Assembly (NCBI GenBank): GCA_021827985.1
Contig: JAKATL010000002.1
Location: forward strand, 846-64,845
Direction: 5' to 3'
Source: a bacterium
Lineage (GTDB): Bacteria > Chloroflexota > Dormibacteria > Aeolococcales > Bog-877
Length of the DNA: 64,000 nt
Made by a program: the position numbers and the translations under genes. Positions 14,798 to 32,049 of this stretch are shown here, piece by piece. Numbering within the stretch: the stretch's first letter is position 1; each line of letters begins with the position of its first letter. The notes below the pieces were generated by a model. That model had not been told where the DNA came from. It saw only the letters and a program-made list of their open reading frames with translations, and made no database searches.

Positions 14798-16117
14798 GTG
14801 AGCGCCTGGCTGCTGGTGGTGCTGGTGGTGGCGCTCATCGTGGCCTCCCTGGCCGCCACCGCCGAGACCGCCCTCACCTCGGTGAGCCGGGTCCGGCTGC
14901 GCGCAAGGCGGGAGCAGGGCGACCATCGGGCGGCTCTCATCGAGCGTCTGCATGCCAACCCCGGAGGCTACCTTTCCACGGTCCTGGTGCTCAACACCGT
15001 GGCCCTGGTGCTGGCCTCGTCGGCAGCCACCCTCCTGGCCCAGGACCACCTCGGAGCCAGCACCGCATTCTGGGCTTCCTTGGCTCTGGCGGTGGTGGTG
15101 CTACTGGTTTGTGAGATCGGCCCCAAGGCCTATGCCCTGCAGCACAACGAGGTGGTGGCCAACCTGCTCGCCCCTCCCGTGGCCGGGGTCACTAGGGTGC
15201 TCCACCCGCTGGTGGCTGTGCTCACCGCTGTGAGCACTCTGCTGACCAGGATCCTTCCGGGTGAGGGCGGCCGGCGCACCCCCTTCCTCACCGAGGAGGA
15301 GTTGAAGGCGGTGGTGGCGGCCAGCACCGACGAAGGGGTGGTCGAGGAGGAGGAGCGGGAGATGATCCAGGGGGTCCTGGAGATGACGGACAAGACGGCC
15401 CGCGAGGCGATGGTGCCCAGGGTCCAGGTGGTTGCCCTGGCCGCCGGAGCCACGCTCGAGGAGGCGGTCGAGCTGGTGCTGGATCGCGGCCACAGCCGCA
15501 TCCCCGTGTACAACGAGACCATCGACAACGTGGTGGGCATCCTCTACGCCAAGGACCTGCTCAAGGTCTGGCGGCAGGATCCCAACCTGGAGGTGGGCAC
15601 CCTGGCCCGCCCGGCGACGTTCGTCCCCGAGGCCAAACGGCTGGGCGAGCTGCTCCAGGAGATGCAGAGGGCCAAGGTCCATATGGCGGTGGTGGTCGAC
15701 GAGTACGGGGGGACGGCGGGGGTGGTGACCATTGAGGACCTGCTGGAGGAGATCGTGGGGCCAATTCGCGACGAGTACGATGTCCTCGAGCAAGAGGAGA
15801 TCCAGTTGATCTCGCCCACCGAAGCCCTGCTCAGCGGCTCCACCAGCCTGGACGACGTCAACGAGGTCCTCCATCTGAGCCTCAGCGGCGAGGACTTCGA
15901 CTCCATTGGCGGGCTGGTGTACTCCCTCCTGGGGCGGATCCCCGTCGTGGGGGACGAGGTGCGGGCCGACGGTGGAGTGGTGCTGCGGGTTGAGGAGGTG
16001 GAGCGCCAGTCCATCACCTCGGTGCGCCTCCTTATCGACCGTGGGGAGGAGGCCGCTCCGGGCGAAGCGGTTCCCGCCCATCCAGAGGGGCAGGTCACCG
16101 ACGGGTCCGGCGGCTAG
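14798..16117 (+). CDS. CNNM/CBS/CorC (hemolysin-family) transporter
   Basis: AETALTSV, CEIGPK, AMVPR, HSRIPVY, VVDEYGGTAGVVTIEDLLEEIVG, CorC C-terminus. Confidence 0.93.
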   Translation: MSAWLLVVLVVALIVASLAATAETALTSVSRVRLRARREQGDHRAALIERLHANPGGYLSTVLVLNTVALVLASSAATLLAQDHLGASTAFWASLALAVVVLLVCEIGPKAYALQHNEVVANLLAPPVAGVTRVLHPLVAVLTAVSTLLTRILPGEGGRRTPFLTEEELKAVVAASTDEGVVEEEEREMIQGVLEMTDKTAREAMVPRVQVVALAAGATLEEAVELVLDRGHSRIPVYNETIDNVVGILYAKDLLKVWRQDPNLEVGTLARPATFVPEAKRLGELLQEMQRAKVHMAVVVDEYGGTAGVVTIEDLLEEIVGPIRDEYDVLEQEEIQLISPTEALLSGSTSLDDVNEVLHLSLSGEDFDSIGGLVYSLLGRIPVVGDEVRADGGVVLRVEEVERQSITSVRLLIDRGEEAAPGEAVPAHPEGQVTDGSGG

Positions 16118-16119
16118 GG

Positions 16120-16875
16120 TTGCCAGCGTCCGTCGCGGACGAGGGCGTCGTACTCCGGCGCCGCAACTATCAGGAGGCCGACCGGATCCTGGTCATTCTG
16201 ACCCGCGACCATGGCAAGGTGAGCTGCCTCGCCCGAGGAGTCAGGCGGCCCCGGGCGCGCAACGCCGCCGGTCTGGATCTTTTGGGGAGGGCCAAACTGC
16301 TGCTGATCCCCGGTCGCAGCCTGTACGTGCTCGCACAGGCAAGGCCGGTGGGGGCCGCCGGGCGCGGCGACGATCCCATTCGGCTGGCGTGCGCTGCCCT
16401 CTTCGCCGAGGCCGCGGATGGGCTTCTGGAGGAGGGCCATCCGGACCCGATCCTCTTCGAGCTGGTGGGAGAGCACGCCGAGCGGCTCCTCGACATTGGA
16501 CGGCCTCCCCGGCCCGAGCTGGTGCTGGCTCTGTTCCGGCTGGCGGCGGAGGTCGGATATCTCCCCGCCCTCGAACGGTGCATGGGCTGCGGCCGGCCAC
16601 TGGAGAACCGGCCGGGCAGCTTCATCCCTGAGCTGGGGGGCGTGGTCCAGCCTCCCTGCCCAGTTCCGGGCGGGGTGAGCTGTGAGGCGGCCACCATCCG
16701 GGTCCTCCGCGCCCTCGCCCGTGGCGACTTCGAGGTGGGCCGGCGGCTCCGCTGGGGTCCCCGGCTGCTTTCGGAGACTGAAGCGGTCCTGGTGGCCCAC
16801 CTGCGCCACCGCCTCGACCGCCGACTCCTGGCGGCGGATGTGCTGGCGCAGCTGGTGGACGCCGGGGCGGACTAG
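16120..16875 (+). CDS. recO: DNA repair protein RecO
   Basis: EGVVLRRRNYQEADRILVILTRDHGKV..LARGVRR; GYLPALERCMGCG. Confidence 0.93.
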   Translation: MPASVADEGVVLRRRNYQEADRILVILTRDHGKVSCLARGVRRPRARNAAGLDLLGRAKLLLIPGRSLYVLAQARPVGAAGRGDDPIRLACAALFAEAADGLLEEGHPDPILFELVGEHAERLLDIGRPPRPELVLALFRLAAEVGYLPALERCMGCGRPLENRPGSFIPELGGVVQPPCPVPGGVSCEAATIRVLRALARGDFEVGRRLRWGPRLLSETEAVLVAHLRHRLDRRLLAADVLAQLVDAGAD

Positions 16876-16897
16876 CAGGGCCGCCGCCCCGCAGTGA

Positions 16898-19057
16898 TCA
16901 GCCGGAGGACCCAGTGGCGACCAGGAGGTCGGTTCGGTGGTGCCAGCGGTCGTAGAAGCGGCGGAAGTTGATCCGGCTGAGACGGTCCCGCTCGTCTGGG
17001 TCGGAGTCCTCCCACCCCCGGTGCTGGTGCATGACCACCGGTAGGTCGGGGATGCGTCGGAGGTGGAGGCCAGCGCCCCGCAGGGCGAGGCTGAGGTTGA
17101 AGTCCAGCATCCGGTAGAAGCGGAAGCGCTCGTCAAGGAAGCCGAGCTCCGAGAACCGGCGCCTCAGGGTGGCGAGGCAGTAGCCATCGATGGCGTCCAC
17201 CTCCACCTCCTCGGAGTCGTAGAACTCACGGAGGTCGCTGCTTCGAGCTCCCCAGCGGCCCACCGCCCCCACGCGAGGATCATCAAGGGCGTTCAGCAGA
17301 GGTCCGAAGCAGTCCCCGACCGCCTCCACCCCGGTGTCCAGCATGAGGATGGCCCGGCCCCGAGCGGCCCGCACGGTGAGGTTGCGCGCCGCCGCCTCCC
17401 CCAGCTGGTGGTCGGCGTGGAAGGAGCGCAGGCCCGGTTCCTCCTCCTGCAGACGGGAGAGCAGCCTGGACACCTCAGGACCGGCGTCGTTGTCCACCAC
17501 GAGGTACTCGATCTCATGGCCGGTGCTGTACCGCCGCAGGCTATCGACGCACCGCTCCAGGTCCTCGGGGTAGGGGCCAGCCACGATGCTGACGGAGACC
17601 TCGAGGGCGTCCGGGGCCGATCTACCATCGGGGACCTCGTGCGGTGAGGAGATCAGCCCCCGGCGCAGGTCGAGGGCGGTGGCTTTCCGCAGCCGGCCTC
17701 CCCCGGGACGGTCCTCGGGGACGGCCCGAAGAGTGAGAAGCTGGTCGCGGGCCCGGTCCGCCTCGGCGAAGCTGGCCGCCTGCCGCAGTCTCGACCGGCT
17801 AGTTGCCAGCTCGGTCCAGGGCCCCTCGCCGAGGCGGACCTCGGGACTGCGCTCCAGGGCCAGGCCCAGCAGCCGGTCGGCTGCCAAGAGGCCGGAAGCT
17901 CTGGTGGCCGGGCTCATCTTCGGGTCGCTGGCGAAGGTGAAAGTGGCAGCGATCGCGGATGGCAGGTCGAGGTCGTCCTCCATCGCCAACCGCACCGCGA
18001 ACTCCAGCTCCCGTGCCCGCACCGGGTCTACCTCGCCCTCTCTGGCGGCAGCGGCGCGGCGCAGCCGGCGCAGCCCGTGCTCGGCGGCGGCCAGGGCCGC
18101 GAGGGTGAAGTTCAGCCGGGTGCGGTAGCCAACCTGAGCGCAGAGCAGTCGGAAGGCCAGGGGGTCGAAGCCTCGGTCCTCGAGGTCGGCCACGGTGTAC
18201 ACGTTGCCCTGGGACTTGGCCATCTTGACCCCGTCGGCGAGAAGGTGCTGGCCGTGCACCCAGTGCCGGACGAACCGGCCCCCGGTGGCGCCCTCGCTCT
18301 GCGCCAACTCGTCCTCGTGGTGGGGGAAGATGTTGTCCACCCCGCCCGTGTGCAGGTCGATCTCCTCGCCCAGATAGGTCATCGACATGGCGGAGCACTC
18401 TATGTGCCAACCGGGGAACCCGGGGCCGTAGGGGCTGTCCCAGACCATCATCTGGCGGCCGGGATCGGCCGCCCGCCATATGGTGAAGTCGGCGGGGTGG
18501 CGCTTGACGGGGTCGGCCTCGGCCCCGACGCCGTTCAAGAGAAGATCGGGGGTGTTGCCCGAGAGGGCCCCATACCCCGGGTGCCTTGCGGTGTCGAAGT
18601 AGACCGTACCGTCCACCTGGTAGGCGAGGCCCCTTTCCAGAAGCCTGGCGATGAGCTCCAGCATTTGGGGCACGTGGTCGGTGGCCCGGGGAAAGACGTC
18701 CGCCGGCTCGATCGCCAGCTTGGCCTCGGCCTCGTGGAACTCCTGCTCGAAGTGGTCGGCGATCTCCCTTGGCGTCCTACCCGCCGCCAGGGCGGCCGCG
18801 ATCACCTTGTCCCCGCCGCGCTCCGCCATCTCCTGGCGCATATGGCCGACGTCGGTGATGTTCTTGACGTGGAGGACATGCCAGCCCTGGGCCCGGGCCA
18901 CGCGCTTGATCCAGTCGGCCAGCAGGTAGGTGCGCAGGTTGCCGATGTGCACCGACCGGTAGACGGTGGGACCGCAGCTGTACATCCGCAGTGTCCCATC
19001 GCGGAGCGGGACCAACGGGCGCACCGCCCGTGTGCGGGTGTCGAAGAGGCGGAGCAC
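16898..19057 (-). CDS. cysS: Cysteine-tRNA ligase fused to C-terminal GT2 glycosyltransferase domain
   Basis: YSCGPTVY, HIGN, NITDVGH, GFPGWHIECS, DLHTGGVDNIFPHH, KMAKS; then a GT-A fold: LERCVDSL, YLVVDND, AARNL, ILMLDTG, IDGYCL, LDERF. Start GTG 19057 (TACGAT-N6-GTG) or 19087. Confidence 0.88.
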   Translation of the reverse strand: MLRLFDTRTRAVRPLVPLRDGTLRMYSCGPTVYRSVHIGNLRTYLLADWIKRVARAQGWHVLHVKNITDVGHMRQEMAERGGDKVIAAALAAGRTPREIADHFEQEFHEAEAKLAIEPADVFPRATDHVPQMLELIARLLERGLAYQVDGTVYFDTARHPGYGALSGNTPDLLLNGVGAEADPVKRHPADFTIWRAADPGRQMMVWDSPYGPGFPGWHIECSAMSMTYLGEEIDLHTGGVDNIFPHHEDELAQSEGATGGRFVRHWVHGQHLLADGVKMAKSQGNVYTVADLEDRGFDPLAFRLLCAQVGYRTRLNFTLAALAAAEHGLRRLRRAAAAREGEVDPVRARELEFAVRLAMEDDLDLPSAIAATFTFASDPKMSPATRASGLLAADRLLGLALERSPEVRLGEGPWTELATSRSRLRQAASFAEADRARDQLLTLRAVPEDRPGGGRLRKATALDLRRGLISSPHEVPDGRSAPDALEVSVSIVAGPYPEDLERCVDSLRRYSTGHEIEYLVVDNDAGPEVSRLLSRLQEEEPGLRSFHADHQLGEAAARNLTVRAARGRAILMLDTGVEAVGDCFGPLLNALDDPRVGAVGRWGARSSDLREFYDSEEVEVDAIDGYCLATLRRRFSELGFLDERFRFYRMLDFNLSLALRGAGLHLRRIPDLPVVMHQHRGWEDSDPDERDRLSRINFRRFYDRWHHRTDLLVATGSSG

Positions 19058-19149
19058 CAGGCGATCGTACCAGCCGCCTTCGGCCACCCAAGGAGGGACC
19101 AGTTCAGCTCTCCCCCGTTCCGTAGAATGACCCCGTCTTCCTGGGGCGG

Positions 19150-20469
19150 GTGAGGAGTGGAGTGGCTGATTCGAACCGGCTTGACCTTCTGGTCTCGCTC
19201 TGCAAGCGGCGGGGCTTCGTCTTCCCCAGCAGCGAGATCTACGGCGGCCTGAACGCCGTCTACGACTTCGGGCCCCTGGGGGTCCGCCTCAGGCGCCGCA
19301 TCCGGGACCTCTGGTGGAGAGAGGTGGTGGAACTCCGCGACGACGTGGAGGGGCTGGAGGCGGCGATCCTGATGAACCCCCGGGTCTGGGAGGCCTCCGG
19401 CCACCTGGCCAACTTCAGCGATCCCATGGTCGACTGCCTCGGGGAGTGCCACCAACGCTGGCGGGCCGACCAGCTGTCGGGAGACCGATGCCCCAACTGT
19501 GGTGGTGAGCTCAGCGCCGCCCGCCAATTCAATCTGATGTTCAAGACCCACATGGGCGCGGTGGAGGACGCCGGAAGTGTCGTCTACCTCCGCCCGGAGA
19601 CGGCTCAGGGCATATTCGTCAACTTCAAGAACGTTCTCACCAGCTCGCGCCAGCGGGTGCCCTTCGGCATCGCCCAGATCGGGCGCAGCTTCCGCAACGA
19701 GATCACCACCGGCAACTTCATCTTCCGCCTCCGTGAGCTGGAGATGATGGAGCTGGAGTGGTTCTGCGCGCCGGAGGACGACGCCACCTGGTTCGAGTAC
19801 TGGTGCGAGCGCCGCATGGGGTGGCATCGCTCGATCGGGCTTCGCGCCGAGAGCCTGCGCTTGCGGCCTCATGGTGAGGACGAGAAGGCCCACTACGCCC
19901 TCGCCTCCACGGACATCGAATATCGATTCCCCTGGGGCTGGGGCGAGCTGGAGGGGATCGCTCGCCGAGGTGACTACGATCTCCGCCGCCACCAGGAGAT
20001 GAGCGGCAAGGATCTTCAGTACACCGACCCCGCCTCCGGGGCTCGTTTTCTGCCCTATGTGGTGGAGCCGTCCCTGGGGGTGGACCGCACCTTCCTGGCG
20101 CTCCTGCTGGACGCCTACAGGGAGGAGGAGGTTCGAGGGGAGACGAGAGTCGTGCTGGGCCTCGATCCCCGAGTGGCACCATTCGAGGTGGCCGTCCTGC
20201 CGCTCTCCAAGCGGCCTGAGCTGATGGAGATGGCCAGGCGAGTGGAGGCTGATCTCCGCTCCAGCTTCGCCACCGAGTACGACGAGACCCAGGCCATCGG
20301 CCGGCGGTACCGGCGGCAGGACGAGATCGGCACCCCGCTGGCGATCACGATTGACTTCGAGAGCCTTGAGGACCAGGCGGCGACCGTGCGCCGTAGGGAC
20401 ACCATGGAGCAGGTCCGGGTGTCGCTATCGCAGCTTAGGGAGGTCTGCGCCAGCGAGCTGGGGCGCTAG
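19150..20469 (+). CDS. glyQS: Glycine-tRNA ligase (dimeric GlyQS type)
   Basis: LCKRRGFVFPSSEIYGG, YLRPETAQG, PFGIAQIGRSFRNEIT, WGELEGIA, IGRRYRRQDEIGTP. Confidence 0.96.
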   Translation: MRSGVADSNRLDLLVSLCKRRGFVFPSSEIYGGLNAVYDFGPLGVRLRRRIRDLWWREVVELRDDVEGLEAAILMNPRVWEASGHLANFSDPMVDCLGECHQRWRADQLSGDRCPNCGGELSAARQFNLMFKTHMGAVEDAGSVVYLRPETAQGIFVNFKNVLTSSRQRVPFGIAQIGRSFRNEITTGNFIFRLRELEMMELEWFCAPEDDATWFEYWCERRMGWHRSIGLRAESLRLRPHGEDEKAHYALASTDIEYRFPWGWGELEGIARRGDYDLRRHQEMSGKDLQYTDPASGARFLPYVVEPSLGVDRTFLALLLDAYREEEVRGETRVVLGLDPRVAPFEVAVLPLSKRPELMEMARRVEADLRSSFATEYDETQAIGRRYRRQDEIGTPLAITIDFESLEDQAATVRRRDTMEQVRVSLSQLREVCASELGR

Positions 20470-20522
20470 TTCCGGTCCGCCCAGGGAGCCGCGTCCGAGG
20501 CGTTGATGCCTTAGCATTGCAG

Positions 20523-20551
20523 TTGCCACTAAGTGGCATGTGTGCTAACAT
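20523..20551 (+). promoter_or_regulatory. Sigma70-type promoter overlapped by a 7-1-7 Fur/Nur-like box
   Basis: TTGCCA (20523-28)-N17-TAACAT (20546-51) with TG extension; TGCCACT-A-AGTGGCA at 20524-20538. Confidence 0.65.
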
Positions 20552-20582
20552 CCCACCACTTGAGCCTTGGAGGAGCCAGTTG

Positions 20583-21722
20583 ATGGCCAGCCCAGCCGTT
20601 GCCGTCCAGACATCTCGGCCCAGCCTCGTCGGCTGGATCCGAGGGTTCAGTCCCGAGCAGCGCCGGCAGGCCATTTTCATGGTGGTCGTCATCGTTGGCC
20701 TCCATGTGCTGGGATTCGGGCTGCTCCTGCTGGCGGTGGCCCATCACTACTCCGTGGGTCCCAAGGTCTTCGGGCTAGGACTCGGAATCCTCGCCTACTC
20801 CTTCGGACTCCGCCATGCCTTCGACGCGGATCACATCTCGGCGATCGACAACACCACCCGGAAGCTCCAGGCCGAAGGACAGCGTCCTCTGAGCATCGGT
20901 ACCTTCTTCTCTCTGGGTCACTCGACGATCGTCTTCGCCCTCGCCGTGGGCATCGGTTTCGCGGCGCGGGCGGTTTCCAGCGCGGTGAACAACAGCCATT
21001 CCACCCTGCAGTCCTTCGGGAACTTCTTCGGCACCTTGGTATCGGGCGGATTCCTCTACCTGATCGCCGGCTTGAACCTCATGGTGCTGATCGGCATCGT
21101 GCAGATCTTCCTGGAGATGAGACAGGGGAAGTACAACGATTCCGAGCTCGAGGCCCAGTTGAACAGCCGGGGCTTCATGTTCCGGTTCCTCGGCCCCTTG
21201 GCGCGGTCCATCACCAAGCCCTGGCAGATGTACCCGGTGGGGGTCCTGTTCGGGCTGGGGTTTGATACCGCCACCGAGGTCGCCCTGCTGGTTCTGGCGG
21301 GTACCGCGACCTCGGCTGGGCTTCCCCTCTACGCCATCATCTCCCTCCCGCTTCTCTTTGCGGCGGGGATGTCGATGATGGACTCCTTCGACGGGGCCTT
21401 CATGAACTACGCCTATGGTTGGGCCTTCTCAAGGCCCCTGCGCAAGGTCTACTACAACATCGCCATCACCGGGATATCGGTGCTGGTGGCCCTCATCATC
21501 GGGACCATTGAGCTCATCCAGGTGCTGCGGTCGGAGCTACACCTCCACGGGGGCGTGTGGAACTTCGCCGCCGGCTTCTCGATCAACACCGCCGGCTTCG
21601 TGATCGTGGGCCTCTTCATCCTCACCTGGGCCTCCGCGCTGCTCATCTGGCGGTACGGCAATGTGGAGGAGCGATGGGAGCGCGCCGCGGCGGAGGCCAG
21701 GGCCCGGGCGGGGCGCGGCTGA
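20583..21722 (+). CDS. NiCoT (HoxN/HupN/NixA) nickel/cobalt transporter
   Basis: GLRHAFDADHISAIDNTTRK, FFSLGHSTIV, LFGLGFDTATE; GGAGGA RBS. Confidence 0.95.
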   Translation: MASPAVAVQTSRPSLVGWIRGFSPEQRRQAIFMVVVIVGLHVLGFGLLLLAVAHHYSVGPKVFGLGLGILAYSFGLRHAFDADHISAIDNTTRKLQAEGQRPLSIGTFFSLGHSTIVFALAVGIGFAARAVSSAVNNSHSTLQSFGNFFGTLVSGGFLYLIAGLNLMVLIGIVQIFLEMRQGKYNDSELEAQLNSRGFMFRFLGPLARSITKPWQMYPVGVLFGLGFDTATEVALLVLAGTATSAGLPLYAIISLPLLFAAGMSMMDSFDGAFMNYAYGWAFSRPLRKVYYNIAITGISVLVALIIGTIELIQVLRSELHLHGGVWNFAAGFSINTAGFVIVGLFILTWASALLIWRYGNVEERWERAAAEARARAGRG

Positions 21723-22550: not shown

Positions 22551-23953
22551 GGCGGCGCGTCCCGACTCGTCTGCGGGTGGCCGAGCTCGAACACGCGGTG
22601 CAGCGCGCGGAGCGCGCCAGCCAGGTCCCGGCGCTGCACCACCGCGGCCACGGCCAGCTCCGAGGATCCCTGGGAGATGGCAACCACGTTGATGCCTTCC
22701 TCACCCAGGGCCCCGAACATCTTCCCGGCGATCCCGGCGGTGCCGCGCATCGCCTCGCCGACCACCACCACCACCGACACCTGGTCCTGAGCGTCCTGCG
22801 CCCGAAGGTAGCTCGCCTGCCGGAGAGCCTCCCGGGCGGCCGTCAACTCGCCCGCGGGGACGGCGACGCAGATCACGTCCTCGGCGGAGGACTGGGTCAC
22901 CAGGAGGGTGGTGATCCGGGCGTCGGCGAAGCGGCCGAAGACCTCGCCGGCCAGACGATTGAGCCCCGCCCCTGGGCTCGCCGTGAGGGTCAGGAGGCCG
23001 GCCTCCGCCACCCCGGTCACCGCCCTGGCCCCTCCTGGTCCTGGCGACCTGCGGTGGATCACCGTGCCCTGCTCCTGGGGCCGCATGGTGTTCTTGATCC
23101 GGATGGGGATGGCGGCCGAGGCCGCGGGTGGCACGGCGCTCCGGTGCAGCACCTTGGCTCCGAAGTAGGCAAGCTCCATCGCCTCGGCGTACGAGACCTC
23201 TGAGAGGAGCTGGGCATCTGGAACCAGGCGGGGGTCGGCGGTCAGCAGGCCATCGACATCAGTCCAGATCCACACCTCGGCCGCGGGGAGGACCGCGGCC
23301 AGGAGGGTGGCGCTGTGGTCCGATCCGCCTCTACCAAGCGTCGTCACCTCCCCCCCGGCAGTCCGAGCCCGGAAACCGGTGACCACGGGAAGAGTCCCGG
23401 CCTGGAGAAGTGGTAGCAACCGCACTCTGGTCCGCTCCAGAGATTCCGGCATGAGGGGAGCAGCCGCCAGCGGGTGGCCGTCCGTGACCAGCAGTTGAGC
23501 GGAGTCCACAGCGGTGGCCGCCACTCCGCGTTGCCTGAGGACCGCCGCTAGAAGGCATGCCGATAGCAGCTCTCCGGCGCTGGCGGCTGCCTCCAGAGAA
23601 CGGTTGGCCCCGCTCGGGGTTGGGGCCAGCTGACCGCTGCAGGCCCTGTAGGTTGCGGTCACCTCGTCCACTCGCGATACGAAGTCCGCCAGCTCTCTCC
23701 GCGCCAGCAACTCCTTGGCCACACCAACATAGGCGCTCCGGGTAGCTCCGGCGGCTGCTTCCAACCCCGGCCTGCCGGCCACCGCGGACTCGGCCCCTCG
23801 GAGCAGGAGGTCGGTGGTGCCAGCCATGGCCGACACTACGGCGACCACCCCCACCGGGCTGTCGGCCAGGATCGATGCCACCCGGTCCGTGCCCTGGGAG
23901 CCGAGGACCGAGGTACCGCCGAACTTCATCACCGCACGGCAAGGGACACCCAT
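22535..23953 (-). CDS. Aspartate kinase with two ACT domains
   Basis: VMKFGGTSV, VVSAMAGTTD, TTLGRGGSD, WTDVDG, YFGAKVLH, ISQGSSE. Confidence 0.93.
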   Translation of the reverse strand: MGVPCRAVMKFGGTSVLGSQGTDRVASILADSPVGVVAVVSAMAGTTDLLLRGAESAVAGRPGLEAAAGATRSAYVGVAKELLARRELADFVSRVDEVTATYRACSGQLAPTPSGANRSLEAAASAGELLSACLLAAVLRQRGVAATAVDSAQLLVTDGHPLAAAPLMPESLERTRVRLLPLLQAGTLPVVTGFRARTAGGEVTTLGRGGSDHSATLLAAVLPAAEVWIWTDVDGLLTADPRLVPDAQLLSEVSYAEAMELAYFGAKVLHRSAVPPAASAAIPIRIKNTMRPQEQGTVIHRRSPGPGGARAVTGVAEAGLLTLTASPGAGLNRLAGEVFGRFADARITTLLVTQSSAEDVICVAVPAGELTAAREALRQASYLRAQDAQDQVSVVVVVGEAMRGTAGIAGKMFGALGEEGINVVAISQGSSELAVAAVVQRRDLAGALRALHRVFELGHPQTSRDAPPQVLR

Positions 23954-27375: not shown

Positions 27376-29220
27376 TCATCCCACCCGCTCCAGGTCGGAG
27401 TTGGCGAACTGTTCGAAGTAGAGGCGGGAGTAGACCCCCTCCTGGGCCAGGAGCTCAGTGTGCGTGCCCTGCTCCACTATCTCACCGTGGTCCAGGACCA
27501 GGATCTGGTGCGCAGCCAGGATGGTGGAGAGGCGGTGGGCGATGGCGATGGTCGTCCGTCCCCCCATCAGCTTTTCCAGCGCCGACTGGATGGCCCGCTC
27601 GCTGTGGGTGTCCAGGGCGCTGGTGGCCTCGTCCAGGACCAGCACCCTCGGGTTCTTGAGAATGGCCCGTGCCAGCGCTACCCTCTGCTTCTCCCCACCG
27701 CTGAGGCGGTAGCCCCGCTCCCCGGTCATGGTGTCGTACCCGTCGGGGAGCTCCATGATCCGATCGTGGATGGACGCCGCTCGGGCTGCCTGCTCCAGCT
27801 CCTCCTGGCCGGCGTCGGCCTTGCCGACCAGAAGGTTCTCCCGGATGGTGCCATGGAAGAGGAACGTCTCCTGGGTCACGACAGCGATGGCATCCCGGAG
27901 AGTCTCCTGGGTCAGGTCCCGAAGATCGTGGCCGTCCAGGGTGACCCGGCCCTCGTCTACGTCGTAGAGGCGTGCTGCCAGGTAGGTGAGAGTGCTCTTG
28001 CCGGCTCCGCTGTGTCCGACCAGCGCTATCAGCTGGCCCGGGCTGGCGTGGAAGGAGACGTCCCGCACCGCGGGCGGAGAGTCCGGCTCGTACTGGAAGG
28101 TGACGCCCTCGAACGCCAGCTCTCCCCGGATCGAGGCCGCCGGGATCGCCAGCGCTCCCTCACGGTCCTGGATCTCCACCCTCTCGTCCAGGTACTGGAA
28201 GATGCGCTCGAAGAGGGCCAGAGCGCCCTGCAGCTCGACCTGGATGTTGAGCAGCTGCCCGACGGGGAAGAAGAGCTGCGACTGGAAGGTGGTGAAGGCC
28301 ACCAGCGTGCCCACCGACGCCCCCCCGGTCCGGCCGGCGCCGAGGAAGACCCCAGCCACCAGGTAAACGAGGGCGGGCAGGATGGAGAAGAAGGTGGAGA
28401 TGAATCCGAAGAACCACCTCCCCACCATCTGCTGCCGGATCATGAGATCGGTGAGCCGGCCGGTCTCGGTGACGTACCTCTGCTGGGTGACCTTCTCCCG
28501 GCCGAAGACCTTGCTGAGAAGGATCCCACTCACCGAGAGCGTCTCCTCGGCGATCGCCGAGAGGTCGGCCAGGGTGGACTGGGTGTCCGCGCTGACCTTC
28601 CTGCGCACCTCACCTACCCGGGCCGTCACCAGCAGGAAGACGGGCATCAGAACCACCGAAAGGAGGGTCAGCTGCCAGCTGAGAACCGCCATGCCAGTCA
28701 GGGTGGCGGCCGCCCTGGTCAGGTTGGAGACGATGCTGGTGGCGGTGTTGGTGATCACCGAGTCCACCCCGCCGACGTCGTTGGTGAGCCGCGACTGGAT
28801 CTCCCCGGTCCGGGTGGCGGTGAAGAACCTGAGCGGCAGGCTCTGGAGGTGGCTGTAGAGGGCGACCCTGAGGTCCTGCATCATCCGCTGGCCGACCACG
28901 GCGTTGAGATAGGTCTGCCAGACCCCGAGCCCGGTGCTCACCACCGGGGTTATCACCATCACCCCTACGAAGATGAGGAGCAGATGGACGTTGCGCTTCA
29001 AGATGGCGTCGTCGATGATCAGCTTCAGCATCACCGGGTTGACGATCCCGAGGCCGGCCACCACCACCAGGATCAGAAGCACCCCGGTGACCTTCCACCG
29101 GTAGGGGCGGAAGAGGCGGAGCACCCTGAGGATAGTGCTGCGCTGGATCTTCCCGGGAGGGCGCTCCTGCTGGTATCCAGCCATCAGGCGGCGGGGCCCC
29201 CCTCCCATGCGCATCGCCAT
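27376..29220 (-). CDS. ABC exporter, fused permease/ATPase
   Basis: Six-TM domain; GHSGAGKST, LSGGEKQR, LVLDEATSALD, IAHRLST. Confidence 0.95.
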   Translation of the reverse strand: MAMRMGGGPRRLMAGYQQERPPGKIQRSTILRVLRLFRPYRWKVTGVLLILVVVAGLGIVNPVMLKLIIDDAILKRNVHLLLIFVGVMVITPVVSTGLGVWQTYLNAVVGQRMMQDLRVALYSHLQSLPLRFFTATRTGEIQSRLTNDVGGVDSVITNTATSIVSNLTRAAATLTGMAVLSWQLTLLSVVLMPVFLLVTARVGEVRRKVSADTQSTLADLSAIAEETLSVSGILLSKVFGREKVTQQRYVTETGRLTDLMIRQQMVGRWFFGFISTFFSILPALVYLVAGVFLGAGRTGGASVGTLVAFTTFQSQLFFPVGQLLNIQVELQGALALFERIFQYLDERVEIQDREGALAIPAASIRGELAFEGVTFQYEPDSPPAVRDVSFHASPGQLIALVGHSGAGKSTLTYLAARLYDVDEGRVTLDGHDLRDLTQETLRDAIAVVTQETFLFHGTIRENLLVGKADAGQEELEQAARAASIHDRIMELPDGYDTMTGERGYRLSGGEKQRVALARAILKNPRVLVLDEATSALDTHSERAIQSALEKLMGGRTTIAIAHRLSTILAAHQILVLDHGEIVEQGTHTELLAQEGVYSRLYFEQFANSDLERVG

Positions 29221-29349: not shown

Positions 29350-32049
29350 ATGTCACAGACCGTTGCCAGGACCCGTCCGCGGACCAAGGCCGCCGCCGCC
29401 CGCAAGTTCGTGTACGACTTCGAGGAGGGCAACGCGGAGATGCGGGGCCTGCTCGGGGGAAAGGGAGCGGGAGTGGCCGAGATGACCCGGGCGGGGCTGC
29501 CCGTGCCCCCGGGGTTCACCATCACCACCGAGGCGTGTCTGGCGTATCTGGAGAAGGGGACCTTCCCGGAAGGGATGATGGAGGAGGTCCGGACTCACCT
29601 TCAGAGGCTGGAGTCGACCGCCGGCCGGCGCTTCGGGGACCCCAAGGACCCGCTTTTGGTCTCGGTGCGCTCCGGTGCCGCCTTCTCGATGCCGGGGATG
29701 ATGGACACGGTGCTCAACCTCGGCCTCAACGAGAGAACCCTGGAGGGGCTGGCCCAGGCCACCGGGGACCTGCGCTTCGCCCGGGATGCCTACCGGAGGT
29801 TCGTCCAGATGTATGGGCGGATCGTCCTCGGCATCGAGGGCGAGCTCTTCGATGAGGAGCTGGAGGCCGCCAAGCGCCGCCAGGGGGTGAAGACGGACGC
29901 CGAGCTCGACCCCGAGTCCCTGGAGAAGCTGGCGGCCACCTACCGTGTCACCGTCGAGCGCCGGACCGGCAATCCGTTCCCGGAGGAGCCCTGGGAGCAG
30001 CTGACCGGGGCGATAGCCGCGGTCTTCTCCTCCTGGAACGGCAAGCGGGCCGTCGCCTATCGTGAGTACAACCACATCCCGCACACCCTGGGGACCGCCG
30101 TCAACGTGCAGGCCATGGTCTTCGGGAACATGGGCCAGGACTCCGGCACCGGGGTGGCCTTCACCCGCGATCCCTCCACCGGTGAGCGTCGGCTCTACGG
30201 CGAGTACCTGCTCAACGCCCAGGGCGAGGACGTGGTGGCGGGGATCCGCACCCCCCAGCCGATCGCCAGCCTGGAGAGCAGCCTGCCGGAGGTGTACCGG
30301 CAGTTTCAGGAGATCGCCGAGAAGCTGGAGCGGCACTACCGCGACGTACAGGACATGGAGTTCACCATCGAGCGGGGGAAGCTCTACATGCTGCAGACGC
30401 GCACCGGCAAGCGCACCGCGGCAGCGGCGGTCAAGATAGCCGTGGACATGGTGGACGAGGGGTTGATCACCCGCGAGGAGGCTCTGTCCCGGGTAGAGCC
30501 GGAGCAGGTGGACCACCTTCTCCATCGAGCGATCGACCCGAGGGCGGAGGTCAAGGTACTGGCCCAGGGCCTGGCCGCCTCCCCGGGGGCGGCCACCGGG
30601 GCGGCAGTCTTCGATGCCGACCGGGCCGAGGAGATGGCCAAGAAGGGGCAGCGATCCATCCTGGTGCGCATCGAGACCAACCCTGATGACGTGCACGGGA
30701 TGATCGCCGCCGAGGGCGTGCTCACCTCCCGCGGCGGCCGGACCTCGCACGCCGCGGTGGTGGCCAGGGGGATGGGCAAGCCGTGCGTGGCCGGCTGTGA
30801 CGGGATCCGGGTGGACCTGGAGAAGCGGCGCTTTGCCGCCGACGGGGTGACCATTAAAGAAGGAGACCTCATCACCATCGACGGGACCACCGGCCGGGTG
30901 ATCCAGGGTTCAGTCCCCATGGTCGAGGCTGGGGTGTCAGGAGATCTCGAGAAGCTTCTCAAGACGGCCGACCAGGTGCGGCGCCTCAAGGTCTACGCCA
31001 ACGCCGACACCCCTGAGGATGCCCGCCGGGCCCGGGAATTCGGGGCCCAGGGGATCGGGCTCTGCCGGACCGAGCACATGTTCATGCAGCAGGAGCGGCT
31101 TCCCCATGTGCAGGCGATGATCCTGGCCCAGGACTCGACCGCCCGCAAGGAGGCCCTGGACCAGCTCCTGCCCTTCCAGCGGGGGGACTTCATCGGAATC
31201 CTTGAGGCCATGCAGGGGCTCCCGGTGATCATCCGGCTCATCGACCCACCCCTCCATGAGTTCCTGCCCAGCCACGACGAGCTGCTCGAGGAGGTGACCC
31301 GGCTCCGGGCACTGAAGAAGAGCGGAAAGAAGCTGCAGCGGGCGGAGCGACTTCTGGCTGCGGTCGAGGAGCTGCGTGAGCAGAACCCCATGCTGGGACT
31401 CCGAGGATGCCGGCTCGGCCTGCTGTTCCCTGAGATCATCGAGATGCAGGTGCGGGCCATCGCTGAGGCGGCATCGCAGCTGCGCCAGCGGCGCGTCCGC
31501 GCCATCCCCGAGATCATGGTGCCGCTCGTCGGGCACGCCGAGGAGCTGCGCCGCTCCCGCCTGGTGATCGAGGCCACCCTCAAGCAGGTGGCCAAGGAGC
31601 AGGGAGTGCGCTTCGAGACCAAGATCGGGACCATGATCGAGGTCCCGCGTGCCGCGCTGACCGCTGGGTCCATCGCCGAGCACGCCCAGTTCTTCTCCTT
31701 CGGTACCAACGACTTGACCCAGATGACCTTTGGTGTGTCACGGGACGACGCCGAGGGCAAGTTCCTGCGCCGCTACGTCGAGGACGGCATCCTGCCCGCC
31801 AATCCCTTCGAGCACCTGGACCCGGACGGCGTCGGTCGCCTGATGGGTCTGGCGGTCCAGGAGGGGAGGGGGACGAGGCCGGCCCTGGAGGTGGGGATCT
31901 GCGGCGAGCACGGGGGCGACGCCCAGTCGATCGCGATCTGTGAGCGTCTCGGCCTGGACTACGTCTCCAGCTCGCCGTTCCGGGTCCCCGGGGCCCGGCT
32001 GGCTGCCGCCCAAGCCCGACTGGCTGAGGGGGGAGCCAGGGACGTCTGA
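29350..32049 (+). CDS. ppdK: Pyruvate, phosphate dikinase
   Basis: LLGGKGAG, SVRSGAAFSMPGMMDT, GGRTSHAAVVARG, GIGLCRTEHMF, SFGTNDLTQ, GICGEHGG. Confidence 0.97.
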   Translation: MSQTVARTRPRTKAAAARKFVYDFEEGNAEMRGLLGGKGAGVAEMTRAGLPVPPGFTITTEACLAYLEKGTFPEGMMEEVRTHLQRLESTAGRRFGDPKDPLLVSVRSGAAFSMPGMMDTVLNLGLNERTLEGLAQATGDLRFARDAYRRFVQMYGRIVLGIEGELFDEELEAAKRRQGVKTDAELDPESLEKLAATYRVTVERRTGNPFPEEPWEQLTGAIAAVFSSWNGKRAVAYREYNHIPHTLGTAVNVQAMVFGNMGQDSGTGVAFTRDPSTGERRLYGEYLLNAQGEDVVAGIRTPQPIASLESSLPEVYRQFQEIAEKLERHYRDVQDMEFTIERGKLYMLQTRTGKRTAAAAVKIAVDMVDEGLITREEALSRVEPEQVDHLLHRAIDPRAEVKVLAQGLAASPGAATGAAVFDADRAEEMAKKGQRSILVRIETNPDDVHGMIAAEGVLTSRGGRTSHAAVVARGMGKPCVAGCDGIRVDLEKRRFAADGVTIKEGDLITIDGTTGRVIQGSVPMVEAGVSGDLEKLLKTADQVRRLKVYANADTPEDARRAREFGAQGIGLCRTEHMFMQQERLPHVQAMILAQDSTARKEALDQLLPFQRGDFIGILEAMQGLPVIIRLIDPPLHEFLPSHDELLEEVTRLRALKKSGKKLQRAERLLAAVEELREQNPMLGLRGCRLGLLFPEIIEMQVRAIAEAASQLRQRRVRAIPEIMVPLVGHAEELRRSRLVIEATLKQVAKEQGVRFETKIGTMIEVPRAALTAGSIAEHAQFFSFGTNDLTQMTFGVSRDDAEGKFLRRYVEDGILPANPFEHLDPDGVGRLMGLAVQEGRGTRPALEVGICGEHGGDAQSIAICERLGLDYVSSSPFRVPGARLAAAQARLAEGGARDV

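Follow-up and report, generated by a model that had tools for sequence, protein, structure and literature searches.

Proteins in which an aminoacyl-tRNA synthetase (aaRS) carries an appended enzyme, or in which an enzyme carries a tRNA-targeting domain derived from an aaRS, are of a known kind. GluQRS, itself paralogous to an aaRS, modifies a nucleoside of the anticodon, MprF works with the aminoacyl end of tRNA, and B3GNTL1 belongs to glycosyltransferase family 2 (GT2). In LysX, a second-copy aaRS (LysRS) is joined to an enzyme domain (MprF), and tRNA handling and a second reaction thus lie on one chain; the LysRS-MprF fusion is mentioned in the available portion of PMC5388404. Animal QTGAL (B3GNTL1) and QTMAN (GTDC1) are glycosyltransferases acting on an anticodon-loop nucleoside, queuosine, in tRNA (PMC11755703, accessible part), and AvpGT, NucGT and ScaGT, inverting GT2 enzymes of Streptomyces, 3'-O-glucosylate a ribose hydroxyl of adenosine-like nucleosides (PMC11959488, accessible part). 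The closest relatives by synthetase fold are E. coli cysteinyl-tRNA synthetase (CysRS; CysS, 1LI5 and 1U0B) and the CysRS paralogue MshC (3C8Z, 8HFM). Here we describe a new version of this kind of protein, encoded in a 64,000-nucleotide stretch of the genome of a soil bacterium of the Dormibacteria, phylum Chloroflexota (assembly GCA_021827985.1, contig JAKATL010000002.1, positions 846 to 64,845; this whole stretch is called the window below). A single gene of the window encodes a CysRS that is continued, behind its C-terminal anticodon-binding domain CysS_C, by a GT2 glycosyltransferase (GT) domain.

The gene is a single open frame of 729 aa plus stop on the minus strand with a GTG start. 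Residues 26-335 match PF01406 at 291 bits (cut-off 27) and residues 507-659 match PF00535 at 55.9 bits (cut-off 23.3), which bears out an earlier note on this DNA that had read here one uninterrupted open reading frame (ORF) with a CysRS fused in frame to a GT2. The motifs quoted there, SCGPTVY, VHIGNLR, GWHIECS, IFPHHEDE, VKMAKSQ, FAEADRARDQL and LMLDTGVEA (containing D584-T585-G586), are all present in the translation, and HIGN and KMAKS are the class-I HIGH and KMSKS motifs.

When 5.8 billion proteins were searched, 119 of the 120 best matches were found to carry both PF01406 and PF00535, and the lone exception is a partial record of 429 aa. The matches have 47-92% identity to the window protein, are 694-994 aa long and come from several sources, some of them on contigs of 2.4-3.4 Mb. 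The fusion matches are named 'cysteine--tRNA ligase' in the source records, and their bins are assigned to Dormibacteria, Chloroflexota, Dehalococcoidia and Anaerolineae. Across 93 aligned fusions, the CysRS residues C38, H47, G49, N50, W227, C231, H256, E260, K288, M289 and K291, which presumably serve as Zn and Cys ligands of the active site, are kept in all 93, and S292 is kept in 92. Averaged over 28 close fusions, identity to the window protein is 68% for the GT domain and 71% for the linker; for the GT domain of 64 distant fusions, the average is 45%. Given that the best matches share the architecture and that the 93 fusions keep the catalytic residues, the fusion is neither a decaying appendage nor the assembly or stop-loss artefact that the earlier note had considered in case relatives should lack it. 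The fusion was not found described in full-text literature searches, whose coverage leaves out most subscription journals, and the available portions of PMC2922099, PMC6282198 and PMC5388404 do not mention it. Many fused relatives (L011, L014-L016, L018, L019, L033) end in a His-rich tail of 60-80 residues (HDH...HxHxHWPDHxHxHPH), which may bind metal and which the window protein lacks.

CysS_C, linker and GT2 make up the module that has stayed together in evolution. This CysS_C-GT2 unit also exists as a free protein of ~300 aa without the synthetase core, and it is commoner in this free form than fused to the synthetase. Of 201 genomes sampled from the phylum, 49, representing 34 of 123 genera, had a match to the GT part (residues 470-729), in open frames of either ~700-920 aa or ~280-440 aa. 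Of 20 GT-part loci examined, 8 were fused to the synthetase and 12 were unfused to CysRS; six of seven unfused GT proteins match PF23493 (CysS_C), and the seventh shows the motif after frame extension. In a wider profile survey of 1.84 billion representatives, 1270 proteins were obtained at E <= 1e-30, of which the best 149 were classified. Setting aside 71 unrelated giants with multiple GT domains leaves 78 proteins, of which 56 carry CysS_C (46 short complete proteins of <650 aa, 7 longer complete ones and 3 partial ones). The remaining 22 have no CysS_C match; in 19 of them the profile matches from within the first 15 residues of the protein, and these are truncated calls or GT-only forms. 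Clusters of ~300 aa in the ESM Atlas, most frequent in Chloroflexota and Actinomycetota, are auto-named 'CysS anticodon binding/GT2'. Among mid-length relatives, no other informative fusion was seen, just truncated fusions or extra DALR-like pieces. In genome G142 (L027:6165-8498), a 778-aa frame ends in CysS_C and GT2, and no family match was found for its first ~475 residues, which are not CysRS; it is either an over-extended frame in DNA of 73% GC or a case of another N-terminal partner.

An alignment of 24 units (12 fused and 12 free) showed that R7, R11, A19, D20 and D35 are invariant, with Lys or Arg at position 23 and an aromatic residue (F, W or Y) at position 16 in 24/24. The unit profile matches E. 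coli CysRS (1li5/1u0b) over residues 418-459 without a gap (E 1.4e-10). Unit positions 11, 16, 20 and 23 thus correspond to E. coli Arg427, Trp432, Asp436 and Arg439, the equivalents of which in the window protein are R435, F440, D444 and R447. In the accessible part of PMC13449415, these four E. coli residues are the anticodon-interaction residues picked for mutagenesis, and Arg427 bonds O6 of G34. In the 93 aligned fusions, R435 and D444 are kept without exception, position 440 is aromatic in 91 (His in 2) and R447 is kept in 84.

The GT domain was then considered for its fold and its likely active site. AlphaFold2 (AF2) models were confident for the unit alone (pLDDT 92.1, pTM 0.87) and for the full-length protein (pLDDT 90.3, pTM 0.87), and a rigid packing of CysS_C against the GT domain is predicted from the pTM of 0.87 in both. 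VIA-align placed the domain near PcManGT (6yv7, Z 20.9), GalNAc-T1 (8v9q, Z 20.2), K4CP (Z 19.1), SpsA (1h7l, Z 19.0) and AvpGT (Z 18.4), and polypeptide GalNAc-transferases had the top rank in Foldseek; the structures matched at Z 19-21 belong to families GT2 and GT27. As a search for a particular acceptor class, these fold comparisons returned a generic GT-A fold with ties within ~2 Z units. D584-T585-G586 aligns to the DCD motif of the chondroitin polymerase K4CP in a profile alignment, and D662, which aligns to the Asp of the K4CP GGED motif in an HMM alignment, is the putative catalytic base. D584, D662 and H689 are invariant in the 93 aligned fusions, and E588 and H687 (92/93 each) and D592 (90/93) nearly so; given this conservation, the GT domain looks active. 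In one genus, a gene for a ManC-like mannose-1-phosphate guanylyltransferase lies directly upstream of a free CysS_C-GT2 gene on the same strand (L042:6165-7226, with a counterpart in L043), a weak hint at a GDP-sugar donor.

To place the synthetase half, the source genome and its relatives were compared. In the source assembly (G000; 2.83 Mb, 80 contigs, 93% complete), a canonical cysS lies apart on another contig; it encodes 471 aa and scores 453.5-454 bits on TIGR00435 (cysS), and the fused gene is therefore a paralogue. This second copy, for which the earlier note had suggested looking, scores higher than the window protein (361.7 bits, cut-off 340, model positions 1-465 of 466), so the thought that the latter is simply the sole housekeeping CysRS fails. 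A search with the synthetase half in a sample of 61 genomes of the class, also used for the counts of MshA-like genes, revealed three kinds of CysRS-family protein: the canonical type A, type B with a GH insert, and the MshC-like type C of ~400-430 aa. Four unpublished genomes (G038, G145, G173 and G224) are counted in the tallies; none of them carries the CysS_C-GT2 unit, and no single statement depends on them. In a CysRS tree of 38 sequences (support given as SH-aLRT), the GH insert, which has a low pLDDT of 62-66 in the full-length AF2 model, is present in 18/18 type-B rows, 0/13 canonical rows and 0/7 MshC-like rows. Types B and C each form a clade of their own with support 100; within type B, the 10 fused sequences make up one clade (support 96), with branch lengths comparable to those of free type-B enzymes.

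In the sister family f5, each of 11/11 genomes (76-94% complete) has one CysRS-family match. This match was confirmed by sequence as type B in two genomes (G041 and G053, both 94% complete), where the enzyme is full-length (468-473 aa) and has both the insert and an anticodon domain of its own. The window protein thus shares its clade with enzymes that are the sole CysRS-family match in related genomes. The best structural match of the full-length model is chain B of 1U0B, a CysRS bound to tRNA-Cys (476 columns, TM 0.83 normalised to the target, 35% identity). Given this clade and this match, the synthetase half is a genuine CysRS type and not MshC, and the encoded cysteinyl-tRNA synthetase is complete and is probably active. 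Like E. coli CysS, the window protein has the full domain set, the class-I motifs, the Cys/Zn-site residues and the anticodon-contact residues; it differs in the 11-residue GH insert, in ~260 additional C-terminal residues (linker and GT2) and in being a second copy beside a canonical cysS.

The unit and type-B CysRS often co-occur (families f1, f4, f5, f13 and f23). A strict coupling of the two was rejected: G187 (f35) has the unit, and its sole CysRS-family match is of canonical type. In G029, the gene for a free unit of 293 aa shares 19 nt with the start of a complete type-B cysS, which has its own CysS_C, and this is an independent linkage of unit and CysRS because the gene order is opposite to that of the fusion. 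The unit tree needs two changes between the fused and the free state, and the fusion may have a single origin in it.

On these grounds we propose, at a probability of roughly 0.4, that the glycosyltransferase is delivered to tRNA-Cys through the anticodon and modifies the anticodon arm. CysS_C would read the GCA anticodon of tRNA-Cys and this would place the glycosyltransferase beside the anticodon arm, where it would move a sugar from a nucleotide-sugar onto a tRNA nucleoside or ribose hydroxyl; in the fusion, tRNA modification would be coupled to charging on one polypeptide. That the unit binds tRNA-Cys, and that the enzyme is aimed at it, is suggested by the GT domain staying joined to a ~45-residue anticodon reader with intact contact residues even without the synthetase core. 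A tRNA is L-shaped, with the anticodon end far from the acceptor end, and since it is the anticodon end of the synthetase that carries the GT domain, the anticodon arm is a likelier target than the cysteinyl group. The acceptor, donor and physiological role proposed here are guesses. Of the options raised in the earlier note, a synthetase that glycosylates tRNA or another substrate fits in its direction, as the GT domain stays with CysS_C even where the synthetase core is missing; the acceptor is a prediction only.

The known systems named above resemble the window protein in part. Whereas the MprF part of LysX draws on the aminoacyl end of tRNA, the window GT hangs on the anticodon-binding end of its synthetase and also exists with only that end. 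QTGAL and QTMAN, which we liken to the window GT by function only, belong to eukaryotes, have Q34 of tRNA-Tyr and tRNA-Asp as their target and lack a targeting domain of aaRS origin. AvpGT (PDB 9JMA, 9JN3 group) ranks among the ten nearest structures in VIA-align (Z 18.4, 20% identity over 211 residues with an rmsd of 3.3 A); AvpGT, NucGT and ScaGT differ in acting on free nucleosides and in having no RNA-targeting domain, and the match is no better than to other GT2 enzymes (Z 17-21). A broader statement is possible and is put forward tentatively: Chloroflexota (including Dormibacteria) and Actinomycetota may glycosylate tRNA-Cys in or near the anticodon loop, by a GT2 family that borrowed the CysRS anticodon reader and that in some lineages was welded to a second CysRS, coupling charging with modification.

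Several observations weigh against a glycosyltransferase delivered to tRNA-Cys. The CysS_C of the window protein is the most diverged one: PF23493 misses it and matches only the canonical cysS in the genome, so the earlier note fairly called this motif eroded, yet the profile alignment and the AF2 fold do detect the domain. Its unit has a terminal branch of 1.16 in the unit tree, against a median of 0.25, and an Arg at unit position 30, where Gly is near-invariant. At the DxD position of the GT domain the canonical motif is lacking, the sequence being D-T-G here and D-x-G/S in relatives, and one family has Ala in place of the Asp that commonly binds uridine. With a net charge of -14 to +1 in 24 units, the GT domain is acidic overall, and a basic surface as a sign of RNA binding was accordingly rejected. 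A fusion in G068 keeps the GT domain without CysS_C, and three representatives among the best 149 of 1270 have N-terminal sequence but no CysS_C match; moreover, packing against the GT domain could be what conserves the CysS_C residues. The anticodon loop of tRNA-Cys reads CUGCAAA in 24/24 genomes with the unit and in 20/20 without it, and as it is identical in both sets there is no partner-specific tRNA feature. A special tRNA-Cys as partner was rejected on these identical loops and on the single tRNA-Cys gene of the source genome, which stands beside one tRNA-Sec gene. No conserved tRNA-modification neighbour gene was found by Pfam and ORF clustering of 20 loci and the window: no ORF cluster is common to different families except the gene itself, and the Pfam matches of the neighbours are to unrelated housekeeping genes. 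Both tRNA-Cys binding and the sugar adduct are predictions drawn from sequence.

The acidity of the GT domain would suit an enzyme acting on a non-RNA acceptor (a small molecule, a protein or an envelope precursor), with CysS_C serving as a sensor to which tRNA-Cys is a regulatory ligand, or as a purely structural adaptor left over from the fusion. The best folds, polypeptide GalNAc-transferases and polysaccharide or lipid-sugar GT2 enzymes at Z 17-21, point the same way, as do the few members without CysS_C and the ManC-like sugar-nucleotidyl transferase directly upstream in one genus. We nonetheless regard this explanation as rather unlikely, because the four anticodon-contact positions are kept in 24/24 units, free ones included, which is hard to square with a mere adaptor; conserved acceptor-pathway neighbours were not found across families, and for an envelope acceptor, no membrane segment or signal is seen in the sequence or in the fully folded soluble model. 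That the protein is an ordinary redundant CysRS with an inert or vestigial GT domain would agree with the absent canonical DxD and the long branch of the window unit. It is improbable in view of the identity retained by the GT domain (68% and 45% on average in close and distant fusions), of its residues D584, D662 and H689 that are invariant in 93/93, of the persistence of the unit as a free gene in many lineages and of the confident AF2 model (pLDDT 92).

The earlier note had also offered a one-polypeptide route to a Cys-sugar thiol, in which the GT half would make an amino sugar and an MshC-like CysRS half would join Cys to it. In favour of this route, the fused gene is a second copy next to a canonical cysS, and the source genome has an MshA-like GT4 (370 bits, below the cut-off of 462.5) and four PIG-L/LmbE deacetylase matches, with no MshC-like third copy. 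MshC shares the catalytic fold of the window protein (TM ~0.85); its chains of ~400-413 residues align over 412 columns, against 476 for 1U0B, and the MshC model has 411 positions. In contrast to MshC, the window protein retains the anticodon domain, scores 239.8 bits on TIGR03447 (MshC) against a cut-off of 485.1, and falls in a different clade of the tree, that of type B (support 100). The seven local MshC-like proteins (397-429 aa) showed no CysS_C motif and group together in a clade apart (support 100). In the f5 genomes, type B gives the sole CysRS-family match, and the GT unit persists without any ligase domain. The MshA-like GT4 is uninformative on the fusion gene because it is found in 57/61 class genomes whatever their CysRS set, including all 11 f5 genomes, which are without an MshC-like gene. 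Of the mshA-D and bshA-C genes that the earlier note had named, the check as run on the source genome thus gave the MshA-like and PIG-L matches, and it did not find MshD (31 bits), BshC or an MshC-like copy. No thiol-pathway gene was found as a conserved neighbour in the fetched loci and the window. An Hdr-like system, beside which the earlier note had thought the route attractive, is not among the ten annotated genes at 13.7-29.2 kb, no search aimed at Hdr having been made. Taken together, the MshC score below cut-off, the retained anticodon domain, the separate clade and the lack of thiol neighbours disfavour the thiol route, and we consider it very improbable.

MshC-like paralogues of ~400-430 aa (L035, L037, L062-L065 and L073) are common in the phylum. 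Two of them (L035:303-1559 and L037:74-1333), with CGVTPYDTGHLGH, match the MshC model from end to end at 374-382 bits, below the 485 cut-off. Together with the MshA-like GT4 in 57/61 genomes, these paralogues suggest a mycothiol-like thiol pathway that is not so annotated.

A link to selenocysteine, through misreading of UGA by tRNA-Cys, was likewise considered and rejected: in family f13 the unit occurs in 9/12 genomes and SelA in 0/12, and in family f10 SelA occurs in 13/13 and the unit in 0/13. SelA is present in 155/201 genomes of the phylum. The source organism itself appears to use selenocysteine, with a tRNA-Sec (UCA) at 2005-2100 and selA at 9559-10869 of contig C54, 7.5 kb apart. On contig C61, the tRNA-Cys gene (23133-23206) is followed 5 and 7 kb downstream by two partial copies of its last 50 nt (28289-28338 and 30379-30428; 96-98% identical), which look like attachment-site repeats of one or two integrated elements.

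Table 1 Features of the fusion gene and its divergent spacer in the window (residues numbered in the 729-aa frame)
Feature	Position	Strand	Basis
Whole fusion ORF	16898..19087	-	open frame; homologue N-termini for start 19057
CysRS catalytic domain and helical bundle, residues 11-424; CGPT, HIGN, WHIECS, FPHH, KMAKS	17816..19057	-	PF01406, TIGR00435
11-residue GH insert, G81-G91 (GHMRQEMAERG), after NITDV; type-B CysRS marker	18815..18847	-	alignments
CysS_C anticodon-binding domain, residues 425-470	17678..17815	-	profile match to 1li5/1u0b
Conserved linker, residues 471-494, ISSPxEVP motif	17606..17677	-	alignments
GT-A fold GT2 glycosyltransferase domain, residues 495-725	16913..17605	-	PF00535, AF2, VIA-align
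D584-T585-G586 at the DxD position, then E588, D592	17330..17338	-	translation, alignment
Divergent spacer, fusion gene / glyQS	19088..19149	.	flanking ORFs

The longest possible start of the fusion gene is the GTG at 19087, and the GTG at 19057 is the likelier one because the N-termini of close homologues (MLRLFDT) match there; no clear Shine-Dalgarno sequence was found upstream of either. The gene lies between recO (16120-16875, plus strand) and a gene for a class-II GlyRS, glyQS (19150-20469, plus strand), and is divergent from the latter, as the earlier note had described; the spacer to glyQS is 62-92 bp, depending on the start chosen. The other annotated neighbours in the region are housekeeping genes. 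A search of positions 15500-21000 found no Rfam family at E <= 0.1, and an RNA element in the divergent spacer was thus not seen. A strong AAGGAGG-like string on the plus strand (19088-19100) precedes the glyQS start at 19150 by ~53 nt, too distant to be its ribosome-binding site, and the glyQS start or leader may be mis-set.

For the annotation of these phyla, the label 'cysteine--tRNA ligase' in public records hides a conserved second enzyme, and the coexistence of a GH-insert CysRS clade with an MshC-like clade brings a risk of confusion when thiol pathways are inferred from genomes. The CysS_C-GT2 unit also defines a possible new RNA modification that comes down to one tRNA, few candidate positions and a single family of enzymes, some free and some fused. 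To our knowledge, tRNA glycosylation in bacteria has not been described. If our proposal is true, this would be the first bacterial tRNA glycosylation and the first case of a glycosyltransferase directed by an anticodon reader taken from an aaRS, and the glycosylation, if shown, would be categorically new.

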